A DNA stretch of 64,000 bases from an uncultured Candidatus Saccharibacteria bacterium (lineage in GTDB: Bacteria > Patescibacteriota > Saccharimonadia > UBA4664 > CAZOQX01), in NCBI GenBank assembly GCA_964582465.1, contig CAZOQX010000001.1:89214-153213 (forward strand), read 5' to 3'. The notes under the pieces are model-generated. The model was given only the letters and a program-made list of their open reading frames with translations, made no database searches and was not told where the DNA came from. Every line of letters starts with the position of its first letter. Positions within the stretch are counted from its first letter, which is position 1. Of the stretch, positions 6,428 to 63,061 are shown piece after piece. The translations under genes and the position numbers were made by a program.

Positions 6428-6494
6428 GTAATAATTTGGCTTTGTTGGGCCGGTATATACGTGTTTTTATCTGTAGGAACATAATATGCTTCTA

Positions 6495-6523
6495 TTGACA
6501 TATTATGGTTCTTATGCTATTAT
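6495..6523 (+). promoter_or_regulatory. Near-consensus sigma70-type promoter: TTGACA-N17-TATTAT
   Basis: TTGACA at 6495..6500, 17-nt spacer, TATTAT at 6518..6523. Sits upstream of the high-GC gene at 6579. Confidence 0.5.
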
Positions 6524-6578
6524 TCCTCCGTTCTTAGTGTGGATGACGGGTGACCGTCTTGACAGAAAGGGGGCAGCG

Positions 6579-6971
6579 ATGCCCGCAGTTACCATGTACT
6601 ACCCACGAGGTTTCTTCGACTCCACCGACAAGGCCCGCTTCAGGCGGGACGTCAAGCAGAGCGTGGCCGGCTACATGGACGCAATCGATCCCGCAACGGG
6701 TGAGCGAACCAAGTATGGAGCCGACCCGGACGCGTTCATCGACCTCGTCCTCATCCCCTACGACCCCGACGACGCCGAGGTCACGACGCCGCTCCTTGGC
6801 ACGATTGTGACCTACGAGTGGCCCGACCGGATTGTCAACCTGCGCGACCGGATCAATGCGATCACCAACGAGGTCCGGCGGTCCCTCCCAACCGAGCTCG
6901 TACCGAGAGACCAGGAGGCCATCTCCTTCACCTTCCTCGGCAAGATGGCTGGTGCCTGGGCGGTGGCCTGA
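6579..6971 (+). CDS. Hypothetical protein (130 aa) in a high-GC island
   Basis: ATG with an AAAGGGGG RBS. Codon usage is GC-rich, unlike the flanks. Starts MPAVTMYYPRG. Confidence 0.55.
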   Translation: MPAVTMYYPRGFFDSTDKARFRRDVKQSVAGYMDAIDPATGERTKYGADPDAFIDLVLIPYDPDDAEVTTPLLGTIVTYEWPDRIVNLRDRINAITNEVRRSLPTELVPRDQEAISFTFLGKMAGAWAVA

Positions 6972-7002
6972 CCATCAGTATCCCGCTTCACGCGGCGAGA
7001 CA

Positions 7003-7034
7003 CCCGTCTCCCCCGTGGGGCGGGTTTTTCGTTT
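7003..7034 (+). terminator. Intrinsic terminator: GC-rich stem followed by TTTTTCGTTT
   Basis: CCCGTCTCCCCCGTGGGGCGGG hairpin, then a T-tract, directly after the 6579..6971 stop. Confidence 0.5.
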
Positions 7035-7174
7035 AAGCTTAAACCAAGTCCACCAAATTATTCTTTTGCCATATGGTTTGAAGCGGCGGCGGCTGGTATG
7101 ATAAAGTGGCAATGGATTTTAGGAGAGCACATCTCCTTATTTGTTCTAAACGCATGAAACATTAGAGGAATCAT

Positions 7175-9022
7175 ATGAAAAAACGCACACGCAATTTTTT
7201 GATCTTTATCCTAGCCCTCCTGGGCATCTCCGTACTTCTGGCCTCGGCTACGCCCAGCACTAAGACGCAGAATGTATCGCTATCGCAGCTAATCGATGAG
7301 GTTAATTCCAACAAGATTTCGCAAATTGAGGTGGCGGGTGATAAGTTGACAGCCACTCCTAAAGAATCTGGAGCGGCTAAGCAAATCACATTTAAAGAAA
7401 GCTCGGCTAATCTTAAAGATTACGGTATAGATTACAGCAAGGTGAACGTGGTTACCAAGAATCCGGACGGCGGTGGCAGTCGTATCTTCGACGTTATATT
7501 AACGCTACTACCGATTCTGGTGATCATCGGCTTCTTCTACTTCATGATGCGCCAGGCGCAGGGTTCGAGTAACCAGGCCATGAGTTTTGGTAAGAGCCGG
7601 GCCAGATTGTTTACAGCCGACCGCAAGAAGGTGACATTCGCCGAGGTGGCGGGTGCCGAGGAATCAAAACAAGAGTTGGCCGAGGTGGTGGAATTCTTGA
7701 AATATCCCAGCAAATTTGAGTCGCTTGGGGCAAAGATTCCCAAGGGCGTGCTGCTGTTTGGTCCACCTGGAACAGGTAAGACGTTGCTCGCCCGAGCGGT
7801 AGCCGGCGAAGCGGGCGTGCCGTTCTTTAGCATTTCTGGTTCGGAATTTGTGGAAATGTTCGTCGGTGTCGGTGCCAGCCGGGTGCGCGATCTCTTCCTG
7901 CGGGCTAAGAAGAACGCGCCGTGCATTGTTTTCATCGATGAAATTGATGCCGTCGGTCGCCAGCGTGGTACCGGCATGGGTGGCGGTCACGACGAGCGCG
8001 AGCAAACTCTTAACCAGATCTTGGTTGAGATGGATGGTTTCGAGCAAGGTACAAACGTCATTGTGATGGCGGCGACTAACCGCCCCGACGTGCTTGATCC
8101 GGCCCTGCTGCGTCCTGGCCGCTTTGACCGTCGGGTGACGCTGGATTTGCCTGATCGCAAAGATCGCTTTGCAATCCTTACGGTCCATACCGAAGGGAAG
8201 CCGCTGGCGCCAGAAGTTAATCTCGACGAAATTGCCGCAAAAACTCCGGGTTTCTCCGGTGCCGACCTTTCGAACCTCGCAAACGAAGCTGCTATTTTAA
8301 CTGCCCGGCGCAATATGAAGAAGATTGGTATGAGCGAACTGCACGAGGCCGTGGAGAAGGTGGTGTTAGGGCCAGAGCGCAAGAGCCACATTATGAATGA
8401 TAAGGAGAAGGCAATTACAGCCTACCACGAAGCTGGGCACGCCCTAGTTGGGCATGTCTTGCCCGGGACTAATCCGCTGCATAAAATTTCGATCGTGTCG
8501 CGGGGGAGAGCTGGCGGCGTCACTTGGAGCCTCCCGACCGAGGACAAGTATATGTACACTTTGGCCGACTTCCGGGACGACCTAGCCATGGCCCTAGGTG
8601 GCCGGATGGCTGAAAAAATAGTTTATGGTGCGGAGAATATTACCACCGGAGCCGAGAATGATTTGCGCGAGGCGGCCGATTTGGCTCGCCGGATGGTGAC
8701 AGATTACGGCATGAGCAAGAAGTTGAAGAATCGCGTCTTTAGCTCGGGCCGCAGCCTGTTTTTGGGGCGGGACTTTGCCGAGCAGCGTGAGTACTCCGAA
8801 GATGTGGCAAAAGTAATTGATGAAGAAATCGCCGATTACATTGAGGAGGCCAGCCGGCGCTCCGAAGAGGTCATCACTGCTCATCGACCGATGCTCACTA
8901 AAATTGCCGATAAGTTAATCAAAGAAGAAACCATTGAAGGTGAGGAGCTGGAGAAGCTTTTCAAGGATATCGAAAAGGGCATGGGCATGCCGGCCCGGCG
9001 CTCCCGCCCAACTGCGGCATGA
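7175..9022 (+). CDS. ftsH: ATP-dependent zinc metalloprotease FtsH
   Basis: N-terminal TM segments. AAA+ Walker A GPPGTGKT. Second region of homology. HEAGHA zinc-binding motif. 615 aa. Confidence 0.95.
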
Positions 9023-9552
9023 TCACCCTTCCTATTTCCGAGGAAGAGCGGCAGGGTATATTCAATCAATTTTTACATGCCACCAGGCACGGAGCTTTTA
9101 AAACGGAAGTTTTACAAGACTACTACGAGCTCGATGCCTGCCCATCACTAGATGCCTGGCTAGCGGGAGAGCACAAAAAGTCTCTTGAACTGATGCTGGC
9201 CGATGGGCCGAATGAGTGGCAACTGGCCTACGGTCAATTGCAGGTTAAGAAGACGCGAGTTCATGTGGTGGAGCGGCCGTATTCACCTTACATTGAATGG
9301 GAAATTGAAGGGTATAAGCGGGTCTTGGCACAGGCGACCGGCGAAGACATTCGCCTGGTCGATCAGGACGAACTCGGCCAGAGGTGGTTACCTGACGGCG
9401 ATTTTTGGATTTTTGATGATGACAGAGTAATTCAGTACCACTATGAAGGTACCCACACCGTCTCGGCCGATGTTTACGATACTGGTGATGACATTTCTAA
9501 ATTCCTGGAACTTAGAGAGAGCTTAATAGCGAAGAGTAAGCCACTTAGATAA
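9019..9552 (+). CDS. Hypothetical protein (177 aa)
   Basis: ATGA overlap with the ftsH stop. Acidic, no recognisable motif. Confidence 0.5.
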   Translation: MITLPISEEERQGIFNQFLHATRHGAFKTEVLQDYYELDACPSLDAWLAGEHKKSLELMLADGPNEWQLAYGQLQVKKTRVHVVERPYSPYIEWEIEGYKRVLAQATGEDIRLVDQDELGQRWLPDGDFWIFDDDRVIQYHYEGTHTVSADVYDTGDDISKFLELRESLIAKSKPLR

Positions 9553-9568
9553 TTGCGCGGGCCAGACC

Positions 9569-10057
9569 TCAACCCGCAGTCGAAGTCTGGTGGGAATTGG
9601 CAAGCGCCAATTCACGGAAGAAGCGTTTGATGTCGTGGGTCGTTCGCAGCTTGGATGGTTCCAGCCGACCCTCTTCACGCAGCCGTTCGGCCGCAAAGAT
9701 CACGAAGTCGACCACGTCGCCTTGCTGGTTACAGCCGTGGCAGAAGAACCGACTGTTCGGCCACATTGTAACGGACGGCGTTTTCTCGCTGTGGGCTGGG
9801 CACAGTGCTACAAGCTTGTCGCCACTTTGACGACCTTGCCAGCCGAGCTCAGATAACACCTGTTTCCAAGTAACGGCGCCGCGCGCCCAGGCCGCAAAAT
9901 GGCGACTGATGCGCGGTTGATAACTCGGGACGGGCAGATAGAGCCGGTTGTAGCCCTTGCGCCGGTCGTACATGTAGACGTCGTAGCCAAGCTCGCGACC
10001 GTAGTCTTTGGTGTAGTCCGATAGGGGCCGCTCGTAACGGCGTAACTTTATGCGCAT
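9569..10057 (-). CDS. CHC2 zinc-finger (DnaG-primase-type) domain protein; orphan, mobile-element-like
   Basis: Motif CPAHSEKTPSVTMWPNSRFFCHGCNQQGDVVDF matches the primase CHC2 zinc finger. Local GC is elevated. No primase catalytic domain. Confidence 0.5.
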   Translation of the reverse strand: MRIKLRRYERPLSDYTKDYGRELGYDVYMYDRRKGYNRLYLPVPSYQPRISRHFAAWARGAVTWKQVLSELGWQGRQSGDKLVALCPAHSEKTPSVTMWPNSRFFCHGCNQQGDVVDFVIFAAERLREEGRLEPSKLRTTHDIKRFFRELALANSHQTSTAG

Positions 10058-10258
10058 GGCTCCTTCTTTGTCAAAGGGCCCTGGCTGGCGGCCACAACTC
10101 GGCGCCCCGCTTCCAGGTTCGCGAGAGATCAGCTGGGCACTTGGCAGCTTGGCAATCTCCGCTCCAATGAGAACATCGCCATCGGTTCCCTGATGGACTT
10201 ACAGTCTCACCAAGATTATACCTTAATAACTGATTAGCTAGCCGCTATAATGGCATAA

Positions 10259-11836
10259 GTGAATAAACTGCTAGAACGCGCCAATAGAAGAATTAGTACG
10301 GGGTCGGCCGCCGTCTTAATCGGGGCCGCTTTTATGGCGAGCCGCCTGCTCGGTCTACTGCGCGACCGCTTGCTCGCGAGCCACTTCGGTGTGAGTTCCG
10401 TCACCGACGCGTATACAGCTGCCTTCCGCCTGCCCGATATGCTCTTTACGCTGCTTGTCTCCGGCGCTCTGGCTGTGGCGCTCATCCCGATTCTAAGTGA
10501 GCATTGGCATAAGGGCGAAAAGGAACAGACCTGGGAGCTTGCCTCCAGCCTCATTAATAATCTGGCTCTTATTACTATTTTTGCGAGTGTAATTTTATTC
10601 ATCTTTGCTCATCCGCTGGTAAAACTAATTACGCCTGGCTTTGATGCCCACCGCCATCTGCTCGCCGTCAACATGACAAGGATCATGCTCGTGACGCCGT
10701 TCTTGTTTGCGATTTCAAGCGTGGTCGGCTCAGTTAGCCAGGCTTTCGGCCGGTTTTTGTTTTTTGCTACGGCCGGCATATTTTATAATCTCGGAATTAT
10801 TGTGGGCATTGTGGCGCTCGCGCCTCGCTTCGGAATATATGGTGTGGCCTATGGGGTGGTGATGGGGGCGGCCTTGCAGGTAATTATGCAGGTTTTGGGC
10901 TTGACCGGGTTGGGCTACAAGTATCGCTGGACGCTAAAGTGGCGTCGCACCAGCGTGGGCCGAGTGATTCGCCTGATGATTCCGCGCTCAATTGATCAGG
11001 GTATTGATCAAATCAACTACACTGTCGAAACAATCATTGGCTCGCATCTAGCCGCTGGGTCGCTCACGGCCTACTACTACGCCAATAATTTAAAGAACGT
11101 GCCCCTGGTGCTTTTTGGGACATCAATCGCTACAGCCGCTTTCCCAAGCTTGGCGTCTAGTGCGGCCGCCAAGGACCGGACGGGTGTGGTCGAGAACTTT
11201 GTGCTAAATGGTCGGATGATTCTATTCTTGGTTCTACCGGCGGCTACGGCAACCATTTTGTTGCGCGGCTACATTGTGCGCTTGCTCTTCGGATTCGGCA
11301 ACGCTACCACGGCCAGTACCCTGGGATTTTTTGCCGGTACAATTTTGTTTCAGAGTTTATTCTTCTTAGTGGCGCGGGTCTATTACGCTATGCAGGACAC
11401 CAAGACACCCCTTTTCACCAGTATTTTTGCGATCGGCCTCAATATCATTTTAAGTATTATTTTGGCGCGGCACATGCAAGTGGCCGGACTGGCCTTGGCC
11501 CAATCGATCGTGGCAGCTTTCGAAGTGTCGTTACTCCTTATAATCTTGCGCCGGCGGTTGGGTAACATCGGGCTAAAACCGCTGGGCGAGGGATTGCTTA
11601 GGATGCTGATCGCAAATGCCATCATGGGCAGTGCGATCTACATTTTAGTGGCGCGCGTCCTGCCACTTTATAAAATCGATCGTGGATTCCTGGTGGTCGG
11701 TCCCAAGTTTGCCGCCATCGTCATAATCGGCGCTCTGGTTTATCTCATCCCTTGCTATTTGCTCAACCTAAAGGAGGCCAAGCAATTTGTCTGGCGGCTG
11801 TTTAGTGCCTTGCGCCGGCCGATGACATTGGATTAG
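10259..11836 (+). CDS. murJ: Lipid II flippase MurJ/MviN
   Basis: 525 aa, about 14 TM helices. N-terminal MurJ signature LLGLLRDRLLASHFG...DAYTAAFRLPDMLF. Confidence 0.9.
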   Translation: MNKLLERANRRISTGSAAVLIGAAFMASRLLGLLRDRLLASHFGVSSVTDAYTAAFRLPDMLFTLLVSGALAVALIPILSEHWHKGEKEQTWELASSLINNLALITIFASVILFIFAHPLVKLITPGFDAHRHLLAVNMTRIMLVTPFLFAISSVVGSVSQAFGRFLFFATAGIFYNLGIIVGIVALAPRFGIYGVAYGVVMGAALQVIMQVLGLTGLGYKYRWTLKWRRTSVGRVIRLMIPRSIDQGIDQINYTVETIIGSHLAAGSLTAYYYANNLKNVPLVLFGTSIATAAFPSLASSAAAKDRTGVVENFVLNGRMILFLVLPAATATILLRGYIVRLLFGFGNATTASTLGFFAGTILFQSLFFLVARVYYAMQDTKTPLFTSIFAIGLNIILSIILARHMQVAGLALAQSIVAAFEVSLLLIILRRRLGNIGLKPLGEGLLRMLIANAIMGSAIYILVARVLPLYKIDRGFLVVGPKFAAIVIIGALVYLIPCYLLNLKEAKQFVWRLFSALRRPMTLD

Positions 11837-12080: not shown

Positions 12081-12968
12081 ATGAGCAAGGGCGTTGCCAG
12101 TCCGTTTTACACCCATGTTCAAGAATTTCGGCGCAGGCTATTCTGGACAGCTTTAGTTTTTCTGGGAGGCGCTGGAGCTGGCTATTTCTTTCGTTTACCA
12201 CTGACTAAGGTACTAAACCAGCCGATTGCTCAGCCACTTTTTTATACTTCTCCGAGCGGCGGGTTTGATTTCTACGTGAAGATTAGTTTGGCGGTTGGGT
12301 TGATGGCTGCAATCCCGGCAATTCTGTATCATCTTGTCCGTTTTATCGACCCGGCTTTTGAACGGAAAATCCATGGCCGACATCTAAGCTTGCTTGTCTT
12401 GCTCTCGTTTACGTTGATGCTAGCCGGCATGGCGTTCGCTTGGTTTGTGGTGTTACCAATGAGTTTGCACTTCTTTTCGAGCTATAACAGCCACTTTTTA
12501 AATCCACTCATCTCGGGTACGGAGTACCTCGCCTTTATTATCAACATGTTGGTAACATTTGCTCTCATTTTCCAGCTGCCCCTGCTGCTGCTGTCCGTCA
12601 ATTGGATTACCCCGATCAAGCCGCGCAAATTATTGAAGTTCCAACGCTACGTGATCGTGGGCAGCCTAATTATTGCCGTCATTTTGCCCTTTACCTACGA
12701 CCCAATTACCCAATTTGTGATTGCGCTGCCGATCATCGGTCTCTATGAATTCTCGGTGCTATTGATTTGGATGGTCAACCGCAGGCCGAAGTATAACTTT
12801 GACGCCTTCCCGAATTATCTACCACAGGACAATCTTAAGCTGGCTGGCCCAGAGCCGGCTACGGTGTTCGTCGATTTGCCTACGCTTGCCCCACCTGCGA
12901 AGATATCCCACCCTGTGCCCTCAAGGGTGCTTGACCTCAGGTCACCACAGCGTAATTACGCCGCTTAA
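12081..12968 (+). CDS. tatC: Twin-arginine translocase subunit TatC
   Basis: 295 aa, 6 TM helices. Conserved N-terminal region HVQEFRRRLFW. Confidence 0.9.
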   Translation: MSKGVASPFYTHVQEFRRRLFWTALVFLGGAGAGYFFRLPLTKVLNQPIAQPLFYTSPSGGFDFYVKISLAVGLMAAIPAILYHLVRFIDPAFERKIHGRHLSLLVLLSFTLMLAGMAFAWFVVLPMSLHFFSSYNSHFLNPLISGTEYLAFIINMLVTFALIFQLPLLLLSVNWITPIKPRKLLKFQRYVIVGSLIIAVILPFTYDPITQFVIALPIIGLYEFSVLLIWMVNRRPKYNFDAFPNYLPQDNLKLAGPEPATVFVDLPTLAPPAKISHPVPSRVLDLRSPQRNYAA

Positions 12969-12973
12969 GCCCA

Positions 12974-36421: not shown

Positions 36422-36423
36422 AC

Positions 36424-38471: not shown

Positions 38472-38645
38472 GTGGCACTAAGTAGCACTTTGTATGTACG
38501 GCTGCCAGACGATCTGTACAACAGACTCAAGTCCCACTGCGACAAGGATGATCGGTCTCTGGCCAGCGCCACACGCAGGGCCGTGAGGGAGTATCTCGAC
38601 CGACATGAGGAGAGGGAGGAACGACGAGATGGCCAAGCGGTATGA
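38472..38645 (+). CDS. Ribbon-helix-helix (CopG/ParD-like) antitoxin-like small protein (57 aa); not in the ORF track
   Basis: GGAGG RBS, 5-nt spacer, GTG start. Translation VALSSTLYVRLPDDLYNRLKSHCDKDDRSLASATRRAVREYLDRHEEREERRDGQAV. High-GC. Overlaps the next gene by 17 nt. Confidence 0.6.
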   Translation: MALSSTLYVRLPDDLYNRLKSHCDKDDRSLASATRRAVREYLDRHEEREERRDGQAV

Positions 38646-38880
38646 CGAAGAGATCGCCGTGGAGGTCGCCACCACCGGGGGTATCCCTGCTTCGTTCAAA
38701 TGGCGGGGGCGGACCTACCAAGTGGTCGATGTAATCGGCCGCTGGCGGATCGAAGGCAGGTGGTGGGATGATGGTCGCGATCGCGAGTACTGGCGGGTGG
38801 AAGCCCGCGGCGGGGCGGTCTGGGATCTCTACCTCGACCGTACCACCAATGTTTGGACGCTCGAGCGGCTCTGGGACTAG
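38629..38880 (+). CDS. Hypothetical Trp/Arg-rich protein (83 aa), second gene of the high-GC cassette
   Basis: ATG inside the 3' end of the RHH gene. MAKRYDEEIAVEVATTGGIPASFKWRGRTYQVVDVIGRWRIEGRWWDD... No known toxin fold recognised. Confidence 0.5.
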   Translation: MAKRYDEEIAVEVATTGGIPASFKWRGRTYQVVDVIGRWRIEGRWWDDGRDREYWRVEARGGAVWDLYLDRTTNVWTLERLWD

Positions 38881-38890: not shown

Positions 38891-39649
38891 ATGGAACGCT
38901 ACTACATCGACGTACCCAGTTTCGTCTTCCACGGCTGGTCGCGCTGGCAGCCCGATTGGAAGCACTGGGCGGCCGGCTTCAACGTCCGCATGGGAGCCGA
39001 CATCGATGTCTTCGCCGGTGCCGCGGTACAAGAAGAGTCCGAGCGGGGCTTCCACTTCAGCGACTCCATTTCTCACCGCGTGCGCTTCCTGGATGTGCCG
39101 TGGAAACATCACGGTGAGTCGGCGCCGGTGACTTACCTCGATCACCAGATCTGGCTCACGCTGGACAGCCTCATTCGTGAGCACGGTTTGGACGAGGCCA
39201 TCCGGGTCTACCTCGCCAGCGGCGAGGGACAGCTTCCTGAGCTGGTCGGCGCCCCATCGCGCTGGGGCGGGCGGACGCTCCGCGTACCGGTGGATTTCAT
39301 CAGGATCTCCCGGATCGTTTCGTCGTGGCAGCACAGGTACGAATCCGTCGTCGCCACCATCGAGGTCGGCCACCATTTGGTGCTCTGGGAGGTCGAGGTC
39401 ATGCCCGCGGGTCAGCGGCCGACTCCCAAACCTGGTCTGGCGCCGGACGGACCAATCCGCGGTGGTCTACGCGACCTGATCGAGCGGCTCTACCTCAAGG
39501 ATCCGGCGGCCGTCCAGGCTATCGCCGAGCGGCACGAGTACGGCGGCAGAGACCCACGAGATCGCACGTTCACATACGCAGCTCCCGGGGTCGATCCCAA
39601 GAGCACGCCGCCGGCGCTCGAGTTCCTCCAGCCGGTCGCGGCGGGATAG
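38891..39649 (+). CDS. Hypothetical protein (252 aa), third gene of the high-GC cassette
   Basis: GGAGG RBS 5 nt before the ATG, 10 nt after the previous stop. High-GC codon usage. No recognisable domain. Confidence 0.55.
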   Translation: MERYYIDVPSFVFHGWSRWQPDWKHWAAGFNVRMGADIDVFAGAAVQEESERGFHFSDSISHRVRFLDVPWKHHGESAPVTYLDHQIWLTLDSLIREHGLDEAIRVYLASGEGQLPELVGAPSRWGGRTLRVPVDFIRISRIVSSWQHRYESVVATIEVGHHLVLWEVEVMPAGQRPTPKPGLAPDGPIRGGLRDLIERLYLKDPAAVQAIAERHEYGGRDPRDRTFTYAAPGVDPKSTPPALEFLQPVAAG

Positions 39650-39760
39650 GCGCTGGACATGTTCTACCGGGGTGGGTGGCTTTACGCTGCCCGCCCCGGA
39701 TTCGTTATTATCGACTTCAAGACGCAAGGGTTGTAAAATAATGGTATAAGCATTAGCACA

Positions 39761-41413: not shown

Positions 41414-41414
41414 T

Positions 41415-41490
41415 CTGGAGGGCCATCCGGGATTCGAACCCGGGACACGAGGCTTAAAAGGCCCCTGCTCTGCCAACTGAGCTAATGGCC
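41415..41490 (-). tRNA. tRNA-Lys (anticodon UUU)
   Basis: Reverse complement folds as GGGCCAT-TA-GCTC-AGTTGGCA-GAGC-A-GGGGC-CTTTTAA-GCCTC-GTGTC-CCGGG-TTCGAAT-CCCGG-ATGGCCC-T-CCA. Confidence 0.85.
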
Positions 41491-41624
41491 CGCGAAGGGC
41501 ACTCCATATCCTATTATATATTGCTAAAGGCTTCAATGCTGGTATTAAACTGCTTGTGCTTGGACATAGGCAAGACTATTATGAAAGCACAAGCACCTTG
41601 TTGGAAGAATCAGGAGGCGCGGAG

Positions 41625-41972
41625 ATGGCCGAAACGGTCCAATTCGAACAGCCGTGCCCGGGTTGCTCTGGCACGTTGATCCTGGGAGCGGGTAGCGAGA
41701 TCTACCTGTTTCGCGATGGTCCCCAGTTCAACTACATCTTCTCGCCTCCCTGCGACGACTGCAGCCGGCGCGTCATGGTCTTCGGGGCGGCTGACTGGAT
41801 CGTTCAGCTGATGGGAGTGGGCATCGAGCCCAAGTGGGAGGACACCGCGGGGCGCTGGGTCCAGGCCGAATGCTTCGAGGCCACCTTCGCTGCCCAGCTC
41901 AGCCAGGTCGAGCTCAGCCCGCTCCTGTTGGAGCATCAGTACTGGGGAGGATCACCGAGCGTCGTTACCTGA
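41625..41972 (+). CDS. Hypothetical CxxC...CxxC zinc-ribbon-like small protein (115 aa) in a high-GC island
   Basis: AGGAGG and GGAG RBS before the ATG. CPGC and CDDC pairs. GC-rich codons. Confidence 0.5.
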   Translation: MAETVQFEQPCPGCSGTLILGAGSEIYLFRDGPQFNYIFSPPCDDCSRRVMVFGAADWIVQLMGVGIEPKWEDTAGRWVQAECFEATFAAQLSQVELSPLLLEHQYWGGSPSVVT

Positions 41973-42186: not shown

Positions 42187-42573
42187 ATGGGCGACCGCAA
42201 CGCGCAGGGACTCGAGCAGCTCATCCGGCACCCGAAGGTGCTGCAGTGGGCGCGCGACGAGGTGGGAGTCGACTCGCTGTTCATCGAGCCGAGGACCTTC
42301 GGTCAGCCCACCGGGGCGACCACCAAGGGCAGCTCGAGCGGCACGGTCTCCGATCCGGAGACGTCCTACATGCTGAAGGGCGGGATGGGTGGCCAGGAGA
42401 TCTGCATCGGGGGCATCCTCGACCTGGTCACGGCCGTCTCCAGCTTCCGGGACGCGATCGGGTACACCGGGCAGATCGGCCAGCTGACCTACCAGCAGCT
42501 GCTGCAGCAGGTCGAGGTGGCCCAGGAGGAGGGGGCCAGATCGACCTCCGGCGCCCACTCCACTCGCCGCTAG
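42187..42573 (+). CDS. Hypothetical protein (128 aa) in a high-GC island
   Basis: AGGAGG RBS 7 nt before the ATG. GC-rich. No recognised family. Confidence 0.45.
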   Translation: MGDRNAQGLEQLIRHPKVLQWARDEVGVDSLFIEPRTFGQPTGATTKGSSSGTVSDPETSYMLKGGMGGQEICIGGILDLVTAVSSFRDAIGYTGQIGQLTYQQLLQQVEVAQEEGARSTSGAHSTRR

Positions 42574-42594
42574 CTCTGCGCACAACTCGGGACA

Positions 42595-42630
42595 GGGCCT
42601 CTCCGCAAGGAGGGGCCCTCCTCGTTTTTT
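42595..42630 (+). terminator. Strong intrinsic terminator
   Basis: GGGCCTCTCC-GCAA-GGAGGGGCCC 10-bp stem followed by TCCTCGTTTTTT. Confidence 0.8.
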
Positions 42631-42655
42631 GAAATCTTGGGGTCTTCATCTACTA

Positions 42656-42842: not shown

Positions 42843-43019
42843 GTGAGGCCGATCTTCTTCGCGATCCCGACCATGGGGCCGCCGGGCGACCACGCCCACA
42901 CGGCGCCCAAGAGCGCGAGCTTCCAGAAGATGATGCACATCGACGTCGACGTGGCCGGCCGCGACCGCGGATCCGGGATCGAGATCGCCGGCGGCGCCGG
43001 GGCCCTCGAGACGGGCTGA
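42843..43019 (+). CDS. Small peptide gene (58 aa), high-GC
   Basis: AAGGAGG RBS, 8-nt spacer, GTG start. (V)RPIFFAIPTMGPPGDHAHTAPKSASFQKMMHIDVDVAGRDRGSGIEIAGGAGALETG. Alternative internal ATG (MGPPGD...). Confidence 0.4.
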   Translation: MRPIFFAIPTMGPPGDHAHTAPKSASFQKMMHIDVDVAGRDRGSGIEIAGGAGALETG

Positions 43020-43252
43020 CCTCATCGTGAGGTCGCTCTCGGGTGCGAGCCCGAGGGACCCCGGCAACGCGTCCACCGCTGTGCGCAATCGACGCGCGCA
43101 GCCTGACAGGAAGGAGAGGTCGAGCCAATGCGGTTCCACTTCCTCATAGGCTAGGCGACTAGGGCGCCGGCCGGGAGAAAACCGGCTAAGGCGCTATAGC
43201 AGCTCCTTTCCATGCAGGGCGTCATCACCCTCCCAGCAGGAGGACCTGTGCG

Positions 43253-43276
43253 GGGGGACCGCTTCGGCGGTCCCCC
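43253..43276 (+). other. Perfect 10-bp hairpin with TTCG tetraloop (GGGGGACCGC-TTCG-GCGGTCCCCC) in a structured non-coding region
   Basis: Read directly from the sequence. No T-tract follows. Part of a ~320-nt GC-rich non-coding stretch (43020..43340) with several hairpins. Confidence 0.6.
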
Positions 43277-43293
43277 TCGCGGGGCAACACGAA

Positions 43294-43328
43294 GCCACGT
43301 TCAATTCGAACGTGGCTTTTCGCTTTTG
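43294..43328 (+). terminator. Intrinsic terminator
   Basis: GCCACGTTC-AATTC-GAACGTGGC then TTTTCGCTTTTG. Confidence 0.8.
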
Positions 43329-43360
43329 AGAGGACGTGTTAAGATTTTTAGAAAATTGAT

Positions 43361-44803
43361 TTGGAGGGTCTATGCCCTCCTATGCATTTCAAACGCACTA
43401 CACTCGTAAGCTTATTCCTCGCCGCCACCTTAGGCGGCTTGCTGTTCGCCAAATTCGGTTGGCGCCTTAGTCCTTGGTGGCTGCCAGCTCCGCTAATCTT
43501 GTTTTCCAAACCTCTACGTCGTTCTAAAATTCTGGTGCCGGGCTTAATTCTTACCGGCCTGGCCATTGGTTTAATCCGCGGAAACGTTGCTCTCAAATCC
43601 GAGCGCGCCGTCCAGGGCTTGGTGGGCCAGAAGGTTAGCTTGGTTGGTCGGATTGCTGATGACCCCACCCAGCCCGAGACTAAGAGCTACGCGAGTTTTT
43701 CGCTCAACAATCCCCGCCTAAGTGGCCGCACGCTTCCTGGTCATTTCTACATCATTAGTTATGACACCAAGTTGAGACGATCCGAGCAAGTGGCAGTGTA
43801 CGGAAAACTGCGCCCGGGTTTTGGTAGTTTTCAAGCCGAGTTAATCGCCTCAACGACCCAAGTGCTTGATAGACGGGTGAGCTGGCTGGAGCAATTAAGG
43901 CGTAGCTTCTTTGTGGGCATGCAAACCGCCTTACCGGAGCCGCTAGGAGGGCTAGCCATCGGACTATTGGTTGGCAGCAAATCACTCCTACCCAAAACCC
44001 TACAGGCGGAGCTAACGGCGGTGGGGCTCGCCCACTTAATTGCGGTGTCGGGCTATAACTTAACCATTATTGTAAACGCGGTCCGAAATTTGCTCAGGCG
44101 CGGCTCGAAGTTCATGCGAACGGCCGTATCGGGCTGGCTGATCGCAGGCTTTGTGATTGTGAGCGGGGCGAGCCCCTCGATACTGAGAGCGGCAGTGGTA
44201 GCAGGCCTAATGCTCGCGGCGGATTACTACGGCCGGGCTGTTCGTCCCCTGGTCTTAATTTTGCTGGCAGCCGCGGCGACTGCTTTTATTAATCCGGAGA
44301 ATTTATGGCGTGATGTCGGCTGGCAACTATCCTTCCTGGCCTTCTTTGGCATCTTGGTAATCGCGCCAATTTTTACGGCTAAGCTCCACGGCCGGGCCAT
44401 CTTTCTTAAACAGATCGCACTCGAATCTTTGGCGGCTCAAATCATGACACTACCGCTGATATTGGTAGTTTTCGGTCAGCTCTCCGTGGTCTCGCCGCTG
44501 GCGAACTTATTGATATTACCGCTCGTGCCTCTGGCCATGCTCTTTAGCATGATCGCAGGCCTAGCCGGAATGCTCTGGCCGCTTGGCTCGGGGTGGTTGG
44601 GTTGGCCGGCGCTGATTTTGCTCGAAGTAATGTTAAGCGTGGTGGGGATACTGCACCAGCCGCACTGGGCTAGTTTGCAGCTAACTGCCGCCTGGCCAGC
44701 CGCTGTTGCAATTTATGCTTGCTTTGTAGCATGTCTACTTATGCGGCAGTGGTCGAACGGGCGGAATCTCAAGCAGTTTAGTATAATTGAAGGTGATAAA
44801 TAA
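43361..44803 (+). CDS. comEC: Competence protein ComEC/Rec2 (membrane channel domain only; no metallo-beta-lactamase domain)
   Basis: Multi-TM. Competence-domain hallmark AVGLAHLIAVSGYNLTIIV. 480 aa is short for ComEC. The true start may be M8 (43382). Confidence 0.75.
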   Translation: MEGLCPPMHFKRTTLVSLFLAATLGGLLFAKFGWRLSPWWLPAPLILFSKPLRRSKILVPGLILTGLAIGLIRGNVALKSERAVQGLVGQKVSLVGRIADDPTQPETKSYASFSLNNPRLSGRTLPGHFYIISYDTKLRRSEQVAVYGKLRPGFGSFQAELIASTTQVLDRRVSWLEQLRRSFFVGMQTALPEPLGGLAIGLLVGSKSLLPKTLQAELTAVGLAHLIAVSGYNLTIIVNAVRNLLRRGSKFMRTAVSGWLIAGFVIVSGASPSILRAAVVAGLMLAADYYGRAVRPLVLILLAAAATAFINPENLWRDVGWQLSFLAFFGILVIAPIFTAKLHGRAIFLKQIALESLAAQIMTLPLILVVFGQLSVVSPLANLLILPLVPLAMLFSMIAGLAGMLWPLGSGWLGWPALILLEVMLSVVGILHQPHWASLQLTAAWPAAVAIYACFVACLLMRQWSNGRNLKQFSIIEGDK

Positions 44804-44811
44804 GAGCGCTT

Positions 44812-57945: not shown

Positions 57946-58622
57946 TTGTTCCTCAGGCTGGCAATAGTGGTGAAGCTGCTGGTCAAGGTCTGCCCACCCG
58001 ATGTTTTAGTTTGCTTTAGGGTGACTTTAACTGCCTCTGTCCCGCTGGGCGAAGTGACAGGATTATTGGAGGCATCATAATATTGGGTCACGAGGTCGGC
58101 CACATCTTCCACCACCTTGGCGTCGGCTGGACAGCTCGCTGTAACGGCACTGGGCGGGCAAGTCGTAATGGCTGTGTTGCCTGGAGCGCCCGGATTAGCC
58201 AGGGTGCGGCGATAAAGAATTCTAGTAGTAGGGTCAATGAAATAGATCACATCGTTGACATACGGGGTATTGTGTTGGCCATCGATGTAGAGGATATTAC
58301 CGCTCGTGTTGTGAGCCGGGACCGCCAAAATTAAAGTGGCATTATCGCCGGAGGCAGCCGACCAGCTATACAAGTTGCTCGGCGCGCCTGGGGCATGCTG
58401 ATCAGCTAAGGAGTTGGATGCTTCAACGCCGCGAGCTGACCGAATGGTATCCGAGGTAGTTAGCACTGCTTGTTTTGTATTATTCTGGATAATCGTGATG
58501 GTTTGTTGTCGAGCCAAGTTGGCCAGAACTTTGCCTATAAATTGGCCCATAATCAAAACCATAATGGATGTGACCGCGAGAGCGACCAGGAGCTCAAGTA
58601 AGCTGAAACCACGCTCGCTCAC
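57942..58622 (-). CDS. Minor pilin with prepilin-type N-terminal cleavage/methylation domain
   Basis: MSERGFSLLELLVALAVTSIMVL class III signal. Confidence 0.7.
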   Translation of the reverse strand: MSERGFSLLELLVALAVTSIMVLIMGQFIGKVLANLARQQTITIIQNNTKQAVLTTSDTIRSARGVEASNSLADQHAPGAPSNLYSWSAASGDNATLILAVPAHNTSGNILYIDGQHNTPYVNDVIYFIDPTTRILYRRTLANPGAPGNTAITTCPPSAVTASCPADAKVVEDVADLVTQYYDASNNPVTSPSGTEAVKVTLKQTKTSGGQTLTSSFTTIASLRNK

Positions 58623-59029
58623 TTGTTAATTCCTCGGCTGGCAATTAATGTTGCCACGGCGATATTTTTGGTACTCCCAGCTTCAGTGTAGGCGACGTTT
58701 ATCACAACCTTTTTTAAACTGCCGGCTTGTATTTCCGTGATAGTAGCAGTCGCTGATCTCGGTGTGTGCAGAGATGGGTAGGGGCTGAGTTGGCTGATCA
58801 AGTCCACTGTTCCGACTGGAATTGAATTGTATGGTGTGTTGCGGTAGACCTCTTCTTGCTGCTGGACCACCTGGGTGGCAATCGTGAGGTTCTTGGTTTT
58901 GTGATTAAGATTCTGGATGCCGAAGATGGCCGTGATTATTACGGAGACAATTACCCCCATCACGGCGGCGGCAACTATAAGCTCTAATAGGGAGAAACCG
59001 GCTTGAGGGGCCCACCTCGATTTGCGCAT
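58619..59029 (-). CDS. Minor pilin with prepilin-type N-terminal cleavage/methylation domain
   Basis: ...QAGFSLLELIVAAAVMGVIVSVI class III signal. Confidence 0.7.
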   Translation of the reverse strand: MRKSRWAPQAGFSLLELIVAAAVMGVIVSVIITAIFGIQNLNHKTKNLTIATQVVQQQEEVYRNTPYNSIPVGTVDLISQLSPYPSLHTPRSATATITEIQAGSLKKVVINVAYTEAGSTKNIAVATLIASRGINK

Positions 59030-59081
59030 GTTCTTATTTTAGCGTAAGCGTTTTGATTAAGCTAATGGACTAAAAAGGCTG

Positions 59082-59115
59082 AGGGCCGCCAACTCGGGTG
59101 AGTTGGCGGCCCTCA
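59082..59115 (-). terminator. Intrinsic terminator for the dnaN-like gene (perfect 15-bp stem)
   Basis: GAGGGCCGCCAACTC-GGGT-GAGTTGGCGGCCCTC. On the minus strand it is followed by AGCCTTTTTAG. Confidence 0.65.
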
Positions 59116-59131
59116 TGGGCGCTCGGGTGTC

Positions 59132-60238
59132 CTAGCCCACCGGAGCTGGTATGCGGACGGGCATCACGATGTAGGTGAAGTCCGCGCTTTCGCCGCGAAT
59201 GACGCCCGGCTTCAGGCCGTCGCGAACCTGAATGGTCGCCTCATCATCACCAACTGCCAGTAGGCCGTCGGCGAAGTAGCCAGGGTTGAAGGCCACCGTC
59301 ATGTCCTCGCCTTCGTAGGTACCCTCGATGGCCTCGATGGCGTTGCCGAGGTCGGGCGAAGAGGAGGTCAGGCGGACGCCGAGAGCGTTGAATTCGAACC
59401 GCAGCGGGGTGTTCTCACGGGCCAGGATGCCGACTCGGTGCACGGCCGCGAGCAGGTCTCGCCGGTTGACCCTGAGCTGGTTCTCGTAGTGGTCGGGGAG
59501 CAGCTGCCGGTAGTTCGGGAACTGTCCCTCGATCAGGCGGGTGGACATGGTGAAGTCTCCACCCTCGAACCAGGTTTGGCTCGAGCCGAAGTACAGCTTG
59601 ATGTTACTCTTCGCGTCCAGGTCACCCGCCACCCGGCTCATCTCGCCGATGGCGCGGTTGGGAATGATGCAGGAGCTGTTGCTGGCGCCATCGATCGGGA
59701 GCATTCGTACGGCCAGTCGGTAGCTGTCGGTCGCGGCGAAAGCGAGCTCGCTGCCGCTCAGTTCCAGCAGGACGCCAGTCAGGGTTGGCCGGGCTTCGTC
59801 CCTGCTGGCGGCACGGGCTACCTGGGAGACGGCCAGACTGAAGTCGGCGGCCGGTACGGTGAGGATGATCCCGTCTGGTCTCTGCCAGCTCGGGAAGTCC
59901 TCGGACGGCAGCAGCCGTACCACGCCTTCGTAGGCCTGGCACAGGATGCTCGCTTGGCCTCCGTCGGCGGTGAAGGTCACCACCGCCTGGGGCAGTAATT
60001 TGACGATCTCACCGAGCAGCCTGGCCGGGATCAGCGCGACGCCGGCTTCTTCGACCTGTACGGCCAGGTTCAGCCGTGTGCTCACCTCGAGATCGGTGGT
60101 GGTCAGGACCAGCCCTCCGTCCTCGGTCGCTTCGATGTAGACGCCGGTCAGAGCTGGGATGCCGGGGCGATTGGACACGCCCCGTTGCACCGCAGCCAGA
60201 GCCTCGGCCAAGTCGTCGCGGTCTGCGCGGAACTTCAT
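59132..60238 (-). CDS. dnaN: DNA polymerase III beta subunit (sliding clamp) paralog of actinobacterial type, in a high-GC island
   Basis: MKFRADRDDLAEALAAVQRGVSNRPGIPALTGVYIEA...TDSYRLAVRMLP...EGQFPNYRQLLP...MTVAFNPGYFADGL...YIVMPVRIP closely parallel Mycobacterium-type DnaN. AAGGAGG RBS before M13. About 64 % GC. Confidence 0.85.
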   Translation of the reverse strand: MKFRADRDDLAEALAAVQRGVSNRPGIPALTGVYIEATEDGGLVLTTTDLEVSTRLNLAVQVEEAGVALIPARLLGEIVKLLPQAVVTFTADGGQASILCQAYEGVVRLLPSEDFPSWQRPDGIILTVPAADFSLAVSQVARAASRDEARPTLTGVLLELSGSELAFAATDSYRLAVRMLPIDGASNSSCIIPNRAIGEMSRVAGDLDAKSNIKLYFGSSQTWFEGGDFTMSTRLIEGQFPNYRQLLPDHYENQLRVNRRDLLAAVHRVGILARENTPLRFEFNALGVRLTSSSPDLGNAIEAIEGTYEGEDMTVAFNPGYFADGLLAVGDDEATIQVRDGLKPGVIRGESADFTYIVMPVRIPAPVG

Positions 60239-60399
60239 GCTGGGCGCCTCCTTCTGGAGTTGTGGGGTACGCACCTCTTAATAACCAACCGTACAATTTC
60301 TATGAGTTACTCGCAAGCATAAGTGTTGAGGTTGGCGTTAATATTCGTCGGAGTGTATAAATGTAAAACGAAGGTGTGAACCTACACAAGTGAGGAGTT

Positions 60400-61503
60400 G
60401 TGGCCAAAACCGAAATCCAGTTCTTTCCGGAACGGCTTACAGTGGTAACGGAGCGTCTCTACGCCAACTACGAGCAGAAGGGCTATCCCTACAACCGTCC
60501 TGATGCCGTGCTGCCACAGGACTTCGTGCCGCCGCGCTTGGTGCGCGGTGGCAGGGAAGAGGCACTTTACTTCTTCTACCTGTGCATTTACATGCGCATG
60601 CAACAGAGTAACGTCGCGGCGCGCAAAATGGCTGAGATCTATGACATGGAGTTGTGGGAATACTCCCACGGTGGCAACATCTTTGAGCCAGCCGATGCCG
60701 CTAGGATGGATCCCGTGCAAGTGGGAGAATTCATGCGTGCCAATGGGCTGGGCCAGTTCTACAAGACCAACCCGGGTTACTGGGTGCAGAATTCGGCCAT
60801 GCTGATGCAAGAATGGGATGGGGACCCTCGTAACATGTTTGCGAACATTCGCACATACGAAGACGCGCTCAAACATGTGCGGAAGTTCCGGGGATTCGAC
60901 AAAAAGATGACCAGCATGATCTTGTATTTCATGATGGATGTTGGTCTGATGGAGCCCTTCATATTTCCAATCCCAGTTGATTTCCATGTTCAACGTATCG
61001 CCGCCGAAACCGATTCGGTGACATGGCCATACGGTGTGCAGCCTGGAATCACGAATGATCGCCTGGGTGATCTTTTGCGGCCGTTCTTCCAGGATTACGC
61101 AGAGGAGCATGGTGTTAGCCCTTTGCGCTTGGCTGATGTGCTGTGGTTACATGGCAGCTTGATGTGCGAGGACAATCCGGGCAACCGTACCCACGCGGGC
61201 GAATACAATGCTCGTTCTACGCATATCCAGCCCCATCACGTTACCTGGAAAAGGGCTGAGGTTGCTTCGTTCATGCGGTCGTGCGCCCAATGCCCGGTGC
61301 GGAAGCTTTGCACCACCAATGTACCCTCAGAGTACAACTCTACGCTGGGAAAAATTGTACGGGATTCACCGCGCGAAGAGCCTCCTTCCGATTGGTATGG
61401 CGCGTTTGAGTCTACGTTCGAACCAAACGTGGCGACCACTCCAAGCGCCCCAAAGGCTACCAAGGTTCAGCCCCCTCCTTCCGATCATCCCACCCTGTTC
61501 TAG
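60400..61503 (+). CDS. HhH-GPD superfamily DNA glycosylase-like protein with C-terminal Cys cluster (367 aa), high-GC
   Basis: FRGFDKKMTSMILYFMMDVG...PIPVDFHVQRI parallels the EndoIII/MutY helix-hairpin-helix lysine and VDTHVxRV catalytic-Asp region. SCAQCPVRKLC (C-x2-C-x5-C). Confidence 0.45.
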   Translation: MAKTEIQFFPERLTVVTERLYANYEQKGYPYNRPDAVLPQDFVPPRLVRGGREEALYFFYLCIYMRMQQSNVAARKMAEIYDMELWEYSHGGNIFEPADAARMDPVQVGEFMRANGLGQFYKTNPGYWVQNSAMLMQEWDGDPRNMFANIRTYEDALKHVRKFRGFDKKMTSMILYFMMDVGLMEPFIFPIPVDFHVQRIAAETDSVTWPYGVQPGITNDRLGDLLRPFFQDYAEEHGVSPLRLADVLWLHGSLMCEDNPGNRTHAGEYNARSTHIQPHHVTWKRAEVASFMRSCAQCPVRKLCTTNVPSEYNSTLGKIVRDSPREEPPSDWYGAFESTFEPNVATTPSAPKATKVQPPPSDHPTLF

Positions 61504-61619
61504 CCGCCCCGACTGCCGTGTACGCGATGGTCGGGGCGGTTCTCATTATTATCATTAGCGAAAATGCTTGAGCTAACGAAAGCACGAGCGTAATATTAAA
61601 GTACTTACGGCTACACGAG

Positions 61620-62972
61620 GTGGAAGTAAGTCGCACGTTGAATTCTGACGTGCCCGAGACTATGAAGGGGGTGAATCCCTTGGTGGCTCGTCGCGACGAG
61701 ATGGAGCAGTTGGCGCCGCCCCTCAGGGGGCACCCCGATCTCCACATCGTCAAGTCGATCTCAACATCGGCGCCTCGACGACGGCGCAATTCACTGGTTA
61801 ACCAGAAGCATCGCCGCTTGCCTGTTGCTTGCACCAACGTACTGGCGCAAGAGCGAGAGGCAACCGATCCGGAGCACATTCAGGGCATCGCCAGCAACAT
61901 GGAAGAGCTAGGCATGCTCCAGGATCCGATGGCCATCATTTTCACCGAACGCACGGCACTCGAGCGCTATCTGAAATATTGGAACGCGCTCTACGCCGAT
62001 CGTGAGGTCAGTGAAGGGGTCTTCTGGCATCGTGAAGTGGAAGACTTGGTCGAGTGGACGGGGCACCCCGGCTGCTGGATCATCTTAGTCTTCGGTGAGC
62101 ATCGCTACTCAGCCCGAGTGCTGCAGGGGCGGAAGTGGATCGAAGTCAAGGTCCGCTACAACGTCCGCCCTCGCCGTGGCGCCGACATCCAGGTTTCAGA
62201 AAACAGCGCCAAGATTCCGGCACCGGAAGAGCGCGCCAAGTATCTCGACAAGTGCTGGCGCATGGACCAACTGTTGGCTCACCCGCCCACTCTCAAGACC
62301 TTCGCAAACAAGAAGAAGGTGAGTGAGCAGACCGTTCGCGACGCCATCCGGTACAGCCGGCTCCCCCAGTGGGTGGAGAAGGACCATGTCAAGAAGGGCC
62401 ATATCCGCTACCGGCACGCTGTGGAGATTGCTCGACTTGTTGGCACCGAGCACGACGAGAACCGGATGCATTACTACATCCAGCGCACCATTGTCGGTGG
62501 CTGGAAGCCGGAAGACCTGGCGAAGAAGATCAGTGAGTACCTGAAGAACCTGAAGCAGAACAGCTTCGCAATGATGGTTCAGGACCCGAGCGATGATCGT
62601 CACATCCGTGCCCTCATCGCGCGTCGTGACCTTAGGGCCACTCGCGAGGGATTGCGCTGGGCCAAGGGAGTCACCAAGGCTATCCAAGACGGCACGTTCG
62701 ACAATGTTCTGGTACCGCGAAGCGTCAGCCGTTTCCAGTATGAGCTCGCCGAGCATCTGCTGCAGGCGCTACCGCACTCGCCCAAGGGTCGGGAAGCCAG
62801 CGAGGCCATCAGGCGTGCCATGGACGACTTCCTGGTTCCGCTGCATGCGGAGATCTCGGCGCTGCTTGCCGCCAACCCGGTCGATATCGCCGAGCACGAG
62901 CGGGCTCTCATCGCTGCCGACGACGACGTGGAGAAGATCCACGCCCTCGCCGTCCTCGGAACAACCTCGTAA
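61620..62972 (+). CDS. ParB/Srx-like nuclease domain protein with C-terminal HTH (450 aa), high-GC
   Basis: ParB N-domain-like IQGIASNMEELGMLQDPMAIIF and ILVFGEHRYSARV (GERR-box-like). HTH-like KKKVSEQTVRDAIRYSRLPQWV. The true start may be an internal Met. Confidence 0.5.
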   Translation: MEVSRTLNSDVPETMKGVNPLVARRDEMEQLAPPLRGHPDLHIVKSISTSAPRRRRNSLVNQKHRRLPVACTNVLAQEREATDPEHIQGIASNMEELGMLQDPMAIIFTERTALERYLKYWNALYADREVSEGVFWHREVEDLVEWTGHPGCWIILVFGEHRYSARVLQGRKWIEVKVRYNVRPRRGADIQVSENSAKIPAPEERAKYLDKCWRMDQLLAHPPTLKTFANKKKVSEQTVRDAIRYSRLPQWVEKDHVKKGHIRYRHAVEIARLVGTEHDENRMHYYIQRTIVGGWKPEDLAKKISEYLKNLKQNSFAMMVQDPSDDRHIRALIARRDLRATREGLRWAKGVTKAIQDGTFDNVLVPRSVSRFQYELAEHLLQALPHSPKGREASEAIRRAMDDFLVPLHAEISALLAANPVDIAEHERALIAADDDVEKIHALAVLGTTS

Positions 62973-63061
62973 CGGGGCGTTTTGCCACATCCAGTGGTGA
63001 AGCGCCCCAACGCGTTTTATGCCTAAGTTTGTAATCATCTTTATCTAAGTCAAATTTAAAC

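Follow-up and report, generated by a model that had tools for sequence, protein, structure and literature searches.

A survey of metagenome-assembled genomes (MAGs) of the Candidate Phyla Radiation (CPR), including Saccharimonadia from activated sludge, found transferred fragments of 518-5,730 bp, mainly with replication, recombination and repair genes and with about half of the ORFs unannotated, and attributed them to exchange of DNA by CPR bacteria with phages or other bacteria (PMC10031880). Mammal-associated Saccharibacteria have likewise acquired an arginine deiminase system, which has been given an adaptive interpretation (PMC8764695), and a cultured Saccharibacterium has been shown to undergo natural transformation that depends on ComEC (PMC10633639). 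Here we analyze a stretch of 64,000 nucleotides (the window) from contig CAZOQX010000001.1 of an uncultured Candidatus Saccharibacteria bacterium, in which short islands of high guanine-plus-cytosine (GC) content, one of them holding a full-length gene for the beta sliding clamp (dnaN), lie scattered through a backbone of ordinary composition.

In size and gene types these islands match the activated-sludge fragments. Those events, however, involve near-identical DNA in co-occurring MAGs, that is, recent exchange between known partners, whereas the window has no near-identical donor: its DnaN is at most 66% identical to any match, and the open reading frames (ORFs) I3b and I5c have no homologue. 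The arginine deiminase case is also a foreign gene gain by Saccharibacteria, but concerns a metabolic operon with demonstrated benefit, whereas the window holds single genes or mini-operons that are DNA-related or have no assigned function. Classical tRNA-linked islands and integrative elements share with these islands an atypical composition, insertion relative to related genomes and contact with tRNA genes, which two of the five islands (1 and 4) adjoin. In contrast to them, the islands measure 0.5-1.8 kb instead of 10-100 kb, have no integrase, tRNA-end direct repeat or mobility genes, and in the case of island 4 face the 5' end of the tRNA instead of the 3' end.

The explanation that we favor, with a probability of roughly 0.6, is that a Patescibacteria chromosome of about 53% GC, most likely saccharibacterial, took up short pieces of higher-GC DNA on several occasions. 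The pieces, of about 0.5-1.8 kb, would have come from higher-GC organisms on separate occasions and would have been inserted between genes, at sites that the nearest relatives leave empty or fill with other sequence. Environmental or host DNA may have entered by way of the competence machinery (ComEC and type IV pili), whose genes the window itself carries, and its integration may have proceeded by illegitimate or microhomology-mediated recombination.

The whole window has a GC content of 52.8% (300-nt sliding windows: mean 0.529, standard deviation 0.046). Gene models were set by frame-specific GC and by gene calls on independent contigs, and 46 backbone genes served as the gene-level reference, with a GC content at third codon positions (GC3) of 0.569 +/- 0.045 and a maximum of 0.688 (z 2.6). 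The first-pass annotation had listed five islands, with interval GC contents of 57.7, 58.1, 63.8, 61.5 and 58.9%, respectively. Their genes are as follows:

6486..7035, plus strand: island 1, a single ORFan (I1) and a hairpin; GC3 0.75 (z 4.1), gene GC 0.60
9569..10057, minus strand: island 2 (I2), a CHC2 zinc-ribbon protein (PF01807, E 2.6e-11); GC3 0.69 (z 2.6), gene GC 0.585, marginal
38472..38647, plus strand: island 3, first gene, a small CopG-like ribbon-helix-helix (RHH) protein (PF07878, PF01402)
38629..38880, plus strand: island 3, second gene (I3a), a DUF6504 protein (PF20114, E 2e-14); GGGAGG 9 nt upstream; GC3 0.77 (z 4.6)
38891..39699, plus strand: island 3, third gene (I3b), a 252-aa ORFan; 14-bp-stem terminator at 39667-39699; GC3 0.80 (z 5.1)
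41625..41972, plus strand: island 4, I4a, a 115-aa Cys-rich ORFan, also called on an independent contig (L168, below); GC3 0.81 (z 5.4)
42187..42619, plus strand: island 4, I4b, a 128-aa ORFan; terminator at 42594-42619; GC3 0.95 (z 8.4)
42843..43340, plus strand: island 4, I4c, a 58-aa ORF and a degenerate stretch; terminator-like hairpin at 43291-43319; GC3 0.97 (z 8.9)
59080..60238, minus strand: island 5a, full-length dnaN, beta sliding clamp of 368 aa; 16-bp-stem terminator at 59115-59080; GC3 0.82 (z 5.7)
60400..61503, plus strand: I5b, a 367-aa putative DNA glycosylase, HhH-GPD/AGOG-like; GC3 0.65 (z 1.7), compositionally native
61620..62972, plus strand: I5c, a 450-aa ORFan with weak ParB-like similarity; GC3 0.75 (z 4.0), gene GC 0.60

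Three stretches stand out strongly in the 300-nt GC profile: 38.45-39.8 kb (island 3, peak 0.69), 41.55-43.35 kb (island 4, three blocks with peaks of 0.65, 0.69 and 0.70, set apart by AT-rich spacers of GC 0.38-0.47) and 58.95-60.35 kb (dnaN, peak 0.67). Two are moderate, namely 6.5-7.1 kb (island 1) and 62.5-63.05 kb (the end of I5c), both with a peak of 0.64. Island 2 (9.55-10.2 kb) peaks at just 0.60, against backbone peaks of 0.62 at 37.15-37.7 and 49.45-50.0 kb. At the gene level, eight island ORFs (I1, I3a, I3b, I4a, I4b, I4c, dnaN and I5c) reach GC3 z values of 4-9. The GC3 of I5b is near that of the backbone; therefore, 'island 5' is two GC-rich genes around one of normal composition and not a single block. 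The sliding-window and codon-based check that the first-pass annotation had proposed thus retains islands 3 and 4 and dnaN as strong and I1 and I5c as moderate islands, and leaves I2 marginal and I5b native: about six cassettes look foreign, and of the listed stretches one is a marginal island and one is not GC-rich. The codon usage of the pooled islands correlates at 0.84 with that of actinobacterial origin-region genes and at 0.63 with that of the backbone, the correlation between backbone and actinobacterial origin-region genes being 0.46. A further small GC3-rich ORF (379-576) was weighed as a candidate sixth island and rejected, since its position is conserved in relatives (59-78% identical); it is native.

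The islands had also been said to share ribosome-binding sites of GGAGG type. Such sites lie upstream of six island genes (the RHH gene, I3a, I3b, I4a, I4b and dnaN) and are rare ahead of backbone genes; they are not present upstream of I1, I2, I5b or I5c. Additionally, strong GC-rich hairpin terminators are found directly 3' of dnaN, island 3 and I4b and at the end of island 4. A strong island is in each case a self-contained expression cassette: it brings its own GGAGG ribosome-binding site, carries between one and three ORFs with a GC3 of 0.75-0.97, and closes with a GC-rich hairpin terminator.

The backbone between the islands encodes an ABC transporter, FtsB, FtsH, MurJ, TatC, LepA, an AlkD-like protein, HrcA, GrpE, DnaK, DnaJ, ComEC, YebC, RuvC and a type IV pilus cluster. 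Its DnaK is 79% identical to that of the relative L002, 77% to that of a Candidatus Saccharibacteria contig, 67% to that of a Patescibacteria MAG and 62-64% to those of Bacillota. In line with the suggestion of a Saccharibacteria-like backbone, the higher identity to CPR contigs than to Bacillota makes Patescibacteria, and within them Saccharibacteria, the most likely affiliation on protein similarity. All proteins tested are singletons on one NCBI contig of 157,252 bp, so the organism has no close sequenced relative; in its nearest relatives FtsH is 65-74% identical. The closest backbone relative (L002 and L170; GCA_035481015.1, DATIHE01) comes from soil, and the MAG was deposited under the name 'Candidatus Nanoarchaeia archaeon'. 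Its content of DnaK, ComEC, YebC, RuvC and SmpB indicates a bacterial CPR genome, so that the archaeal label is wrong.

Gene order in these relatives allows a comparison of the island sites, which involves the following neighboring features:

6353..6427, plus strand: tRNA-Met(CAT) (ARAGORN, Rfam), its 3' end abutting the variable site with island 1
9019..9552, plus strand: DUF6879 gene of normal GC (PF21806, E 2e-29), co-inserted with island 2 between FtsH and MurJ
41416..41491, minus strand: tRNA-Lys(TTT) (ARAGORN, Rfam), its 5' end facing island 4; independent contigs break inside it
43382..44803, plus strand: ComEC, the competence DNA channel (Pfam Competence domain on the gene call of an independent Logan contig)

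In about 30 relatives MurJ follows FtsH within some 200 bp, where the window has the DUF6879 gene and island 2. In the relative L090 the order is FtsB, tRNA-Met, tRNA-Met, an unrelated 242-aa ORF, TilS and FtsH, and island 1 replaces that ORF and TilS. In L002 the order is GrpE, DnaK, DnaJ, a 163-aa membrane protein, tRNA-Lys, ComEC, YebC and RuvC, with unrelated sequence of normal GC at the sites of islands 3 and 4; the tRNA-Lys lies between the DnaJ block and ComEC in the orientation opposite to that in the window. Islands 1-4 are hence absent from, or replaced at, the orthologous sites of relatives, and each of the islands lies precisely between two genes, both of them intact and syntenic. 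These comparisons of gene order support the view that islands 1-4 are insertions relative to the related genomes.

An independent assembly of sequencing run SRR9179560 bears on whether the joins are real. Exact-protein look-ups led to six Logan per-run contigs, all 100% identical to the window:

4206-6203 (L169): backbone up to the first tRNA-Met, ending inside it
9355-11013 (L086): both junctions of island 2
39554-41463 (L167): right end of island 3 into the backbone
41462-46712 (L168): all of island 4 through ComEC, YebC and RuvC
58010-60284 (L001): pseudopilin genes into dnaN
60260-64000 (L085): I5b and I5c into the pilin and PilC genes

The Logan contigs break at dnaN/I5b (60260-60284, 25-nt overlap), within tRNA-Lys (41462-41463, 2-nt overlap) and within tRNA-Met (6203). 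Breaks in tRNA genes are expected from k-mers common to many genomes, and the one at 60.27 kb could reflect low coverage or strain variation. No independent contig covers the join inside tRNA-Lys either; the order across this gene agrees with the synteny of L002. Exact look-ups of the DUF6504 ORF and of I3b returned no Logan contig.

The gene with the clearest outside affinity is dnaN. Clamp domains PF00712, PF02767 and PF02768 are recognized at E 2e-22 to 3e-30 over residues 13-374 of a 380-aa query ORF, and PDB clamps align with the window DnaN over residues 1-363; the best-scoring entries, which we take to be those of Streptomyces and Mycobacterium, reach 170-184 bits, against 145 for the E. 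coli clamp. The best 120 database matches are 59-66% identical, and nearly all of the named ones are from Actinomycetota or Actinobacteria MAGs, one being labelled Velamenicoccus archaeovorus. Among these 120, most of which come without an organism name, there is no Saccharibacteria-labelled clamp. The apparent second-best match (P0002) was set aside as an internally duplicated, probably misassembled clamp. In two of these relatives dnaN stands in the order rpmH-dnaA-dnaN-recF-DciA-gyrB-gyrA on contigs of 70-71% GC, while the window gene lies away from the canonical dnaA/recF context, between a pseudopilin gene and the glycosylase-like gene. Across 117 actinobacterial relatives, 169 alignment columns are conserved to at least 98%; the window clamp retains the conserved residue in 149 of them, and many of the 20 changes are conservative. 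Judged by domains and conserved residues, the window dnaN is an intact clamp gene of actinobacterial type.

Supernumerary dnaN copies exist in bacteria, an example being the griR clamp of griselimycin-producing Streptomyces. The window gene resembles these in being a full-length beta-clamp gene away from the dnaA-dnaN-recF origin locus, and differs from them in being of a foreign, phylum-level type and in standing among type IV pilus genes. A functional reading, which we regard as improbable, would make the actinobacterial-type clamp a working part of the episymbiont. The native dnaN would then have been displaced (xenologous replacement of a core replisome subunit across phyla), or the gene would encode an extra clamp. 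Such an extra clamp might let the epibiont interact with an actinobacterial host, or resist its clamp-targeting products. On this reading, the glycosylase-like and ParB-like neighbors would make up a DNA-handling module in the type IV pilus/competence locus.

Several observations weigh against repeated acquisition from higher-GC organisms as we propose it, and bear on who the donors were. Only dnaN has a traceable donor lineage, and even this clamp lies outside the actinobacterial clade that it matches: it is 59-66% (mean 61%) identical to the 117 members, which are 80% identical among themselves on average (minimum 71%). Its GC3 is also under the 0.91-0.95 of its actinobacterial relatives. 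An identity of at most 66%, together with a position outside the clade, means that the gene either came from an unsampled lineage or diverged after transfer. I3b and I5c have no homologue among 5.8 billion proteins, the site of island 5 (pilin and pseudopilin genes) is covered by no relative locus that we fetched, and no microhomology or uptake signature was found, the integration route being our inference. In addition, independent contigs cover neither junction of I1, nor the left one of island 3. These junctions, the breaks inside tRNA-Met and tRNA-Lys beside islands 1 and 4, where the joins rest on the original assembler, and the metagenomic origin of the 157,252-bp contig would also fit islands that are assembly or binning artefacts, in which fragments of some high-GC genome were mistakenly attached to CPR sequence. 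We consider this very improbable. The Logan assembly reproduces backbone-to-island contigs at islands 2, 3 (right), 4 and 5, all islands are exactly intergenic between intact syntenic genes, and a chimera would need to enter and leave a foreign genome within 0.5-1.8 kb five times. The chimeric assembly that the first-pass annotation had asked to exclude is therefore unlikely, given the contigs across junctions and the island-free relatives; the contigs themselves bear on islands 2, 4 and 5 and on the right side of island 3.

The last point against an actinobacterial source for most islands is compositional. Related CPR contigs span 37-60% GC, and in high-GC members of the same clade (FtsH 67-74% identical) FtsH and MurJ have a GC of 0.58-0.61 and a GC3 of 0.74-0.78, which is the composition of I1, I2 and I5c and near that of island 3 and I4a. 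As same-clade relatives reach 58-60% GC, the high GC of I1, I2 and I5c does not point to Actinomycetota; genes on actinobacterial origin-region contigs have a GC3 of 0.91-0.95, matched by I4b and I4c (0.95-0.97) only. It is possible, if doubtful as a full account, that most donors were such high-GC (58-60%) Saccharibacteria-like relatives or their mobile elements, and that only dnaN, perhaps with I4b and I4c, came from an actinobacterial-type genome of about 70% GC. For several islands such relatives account for the composition just as well, which makes a donor within the phylum, or a pool of mobile genes associated with CPR bacteria, a serious rival for most islands. The relatives do bear similar sporadic GC3-rich ORFan islands, and the ORFans of the window have no actinobacterial homologues despite heavy sampling of that phylum. 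However, no homologue of an island ORFan is detectable in any CPR contig either; GGAGG is strong in islands 3 and 4 and rare in this backbone; and DUF6504 and DUF6879 matched only actinomycete records in annotated collections. Another view, which we find rather unlikely, takes the islands for scattered remnants of plasmids or phages (replication, partition and regulation modules) that were integrated and then decayed. The gene types are typical of such elements (CHC2 zinc ribbon, ParB-like, CopG-type RHH), the best matches of I2 include a plasmid 'CHC2 zinc finger domain-containing protein' and phage primases, many ORFs are ORFans and island 4c looks decayed. On the other hand, no integrase, transposase, relaxase or phage structural gene and no flanking repeat was found, no phage, plasmid or viral contig matches beyond a generic zinc ribbon of 45 residues, dnaN resembles chromosomal clamps and keeps their conserved residues, and syntenic backbone between the islands means that they are not one element.

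In this regard, the expectation that island motifs would be Actinomycetota-like, most clearly in dnaN, and that the genes might be host-derived is confirmed in part. The clamp does have its best matches in Actinomycetota, including the origin-region contexts at 70-71% GC; DUF6504 and DUF6879 give weak hints, the others give none, and I3b and I5c are without relatives. The family of I5b occurs in the nearest CPR relative. An actinobacterial origin, possibly from the host, is supported for dnaN only and unproven for the rest, and recent transfer from a sampled host is not borne out, the clamp being at most 66% identical to any sampled actinobacterial one.

Repeated acquisition of small pieces remains the reading that we prefer, and the range of island GC3 (0.69-0.97), together with decay in island 4, indicates several events of different age, or different donors, and not one donor block. 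Scans of the island ORFs against Pfam, PHROG and NCBIfam found no integrase or transposase, and the islands have no flanking direct repeats or attachment sites; the combination of integrase or recombinase and attachment repeats that marks an integrative mobile element was thus not found. Nor does a prophage emerge, since PHROG matches are limited to the primase zinc ribbon and to weak ParB-like similarity, tblastn against 50,697 phage records gave nothing beyond the zinc ribbon, and viral-contig scans with I5c and I3b were empty. A tblastn search with I5c and the concatenated other island proteins against phage and plasmid records returned only the generic CHC2 zinc ribbon and one DUF6504 match. 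As neither integrase nor transposase nor flanking repeat is present, uptake by competence would be the most likely route. Besides ComEC, the window encodes type IV pilus genes at 54.3-59.0 and 63.1-64.0 kb (with an N_methyl pilin match).

The GC3-rich (0.75-0.91) ORFan islands of the relatives occur in L093 (2831-4264 and 10837-11169), L133 (705-1106), L138 (5648-6481), L144 (551-3950) and L159 (1803-2537). None is homologous to those of the window, and such islands are about a quarter as dense there as in the window.

The island 1 ORF was called as 6486-6971, with a start probably at 6579 (MPAVTMYY...), and is followed by a GC-rich hairpin and T-run near 6995-7030. I1 has no match in Pfam, PHROG, NCBIfam, PADLOC or PDB and, like I4a, I4b and I4c, resembles no protein family and nothing in phages or plasmids. 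Homology of I1 to a GC-rich 130-aa ORF of L133, which also begins with MP, was refuted by BLASTP. I2 is a stand-alone CHC2 zinc ribbon, that is, of a primase only the N-terminal domain; PHROG primase families match the same 45 residues as PF01807, and the protein resembles the zinc ribbons of primases and small plasmid proteins. It was dropped as a defence gene, PADLOC having given only the zinc-ribbon part of DRT models, and a weak TilS_C match in I2 was rejected on comparison with the TilS of a relative. The neighboring DUF6879 gene, of backbone-like GC, has its start codon inside the FtsH stop codon (ATGA); in the plasmid collection it matches only Streptomyces and Pseudonocardia, weakly (29-34% identity). 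A distant DUF6879 homologue in L133 likewise adjoins a GC-rich ORFan island.

Island 3 is a three-gene operon of the CopG-like RHH gene, the DUF6504 gene and I3b. Annotated collections yielded a single DUF6504 match, in Nonomuraea, where the domain immediately precedes a DnaE2-type polymerase; the literature had nothing on DUF6504, nor on the run SRR9179560. I3b has no homologue among 5.8 billion clustered proteins, phage and plasmid records or viral contigs, and its AlphaFold single-sequence model is unusable, with a predicted local distance difference test (pLDDT) score of 30. In island 4, the GC3 phase shifts downstream of the I4c ORF and a consistent reading frame is gone (frame-specific GC, six-frame translation); this stretch is probably decayed coding sequence. 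The AT-rich spacer between I4b and I4c (42629-42723) holds two near-perfect sigma-70 promoter matches, each at 11 of 12 positions: TTGACA-17-TATTAT with an extended TG, and TTGACA-17-CATAAT. A 32-nt inverted match of 84% links part (478-509) of the native small ORF at 379-576 with decayed island 4 (42985-43016), and its opposite-strand translation has a faint ARxExPGA likeness; the match might be fortuitous or mark a pseudogene copy.

The family of I5b, with about 450 representative proteins and no Pfam model, is apparently undescribed. Its best match (39% by phmmer, 36% by tblastn) is in the MAG of the closest backbone relative, in an ordinary CPR neighborhood. The family profile matches PDB 1xqo, an archaeal 8-oxoguanine glycosylase, weakly (E 0.003), AGOG of Pfam matches 4 of 50 family members, and four cysteines (C256, C295, C298 and C304) are invariant. 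With its native composition, I5b is best read as a native, HhH-GPD-like putative glycosylase that would not be part of the foreign DNA. I5c matches PHROG ParB-like families weakly (E 6e-6 to 1e-5) and nothing in Pfam even at E <= 1; searches of 5.8 billion clustered proteins, of phage, plasmid and viral-contig sequences and of PDB brought up no homologue, and its AlphaFold single-sequence model (pLDDT 36) is unusable.

Other differences from the relatives concern the backbone itself. The window lacks TilS at the conserved position ahead of FtsH (6100-7175; in L090, 3426-5935), and no TilS homologue is present anywhere in the window. The window also has a tRNA-Ile with anticodon TAT (2706-2780), whose acceptor stem matches that of the third tRNA(CAT) of relatives, probably a tRNA-Ile2; this suggests a CAU-to-UAU anticodon switch together with loss of the lysidine synthetase. 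In relatives LepA comes directly after MurJ, where the window has an 18.9-kb insertion of normal GC (12081-30630). It holds TatC and seven tandem paralogous giant ORFs of 526-1134 aa, without a Pfam match and with higher GC at second than at first codon positions (GC2 > GC1), whose stop and start codons overlap within a repeated 25-nt junction motif.

Taken together, our findings describe real, repeated small-scale horizontal acquisition in a Saccharibacteria-like genome, an already known kind of event. Gene gain by ultra-small episymbiotic bacteria is documented, and the general pattern adds an example and not a new principle. Since members of the same CPR clade reach 60% GC, a high GC content does not mark such islands as 'actinobacterial'. 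The tiny cassettes, with signals of their own and without an integrase, fit natural transformation, a process demonstrated by experiment in this phylum. The clean case is dnaN, an intact and assembly-verified core replication gene of another phylum's type in a Saccharibacteria-like chromosome; if this clamp were the sole one of the cell, it would represent an unusual cross-phylum replacement.

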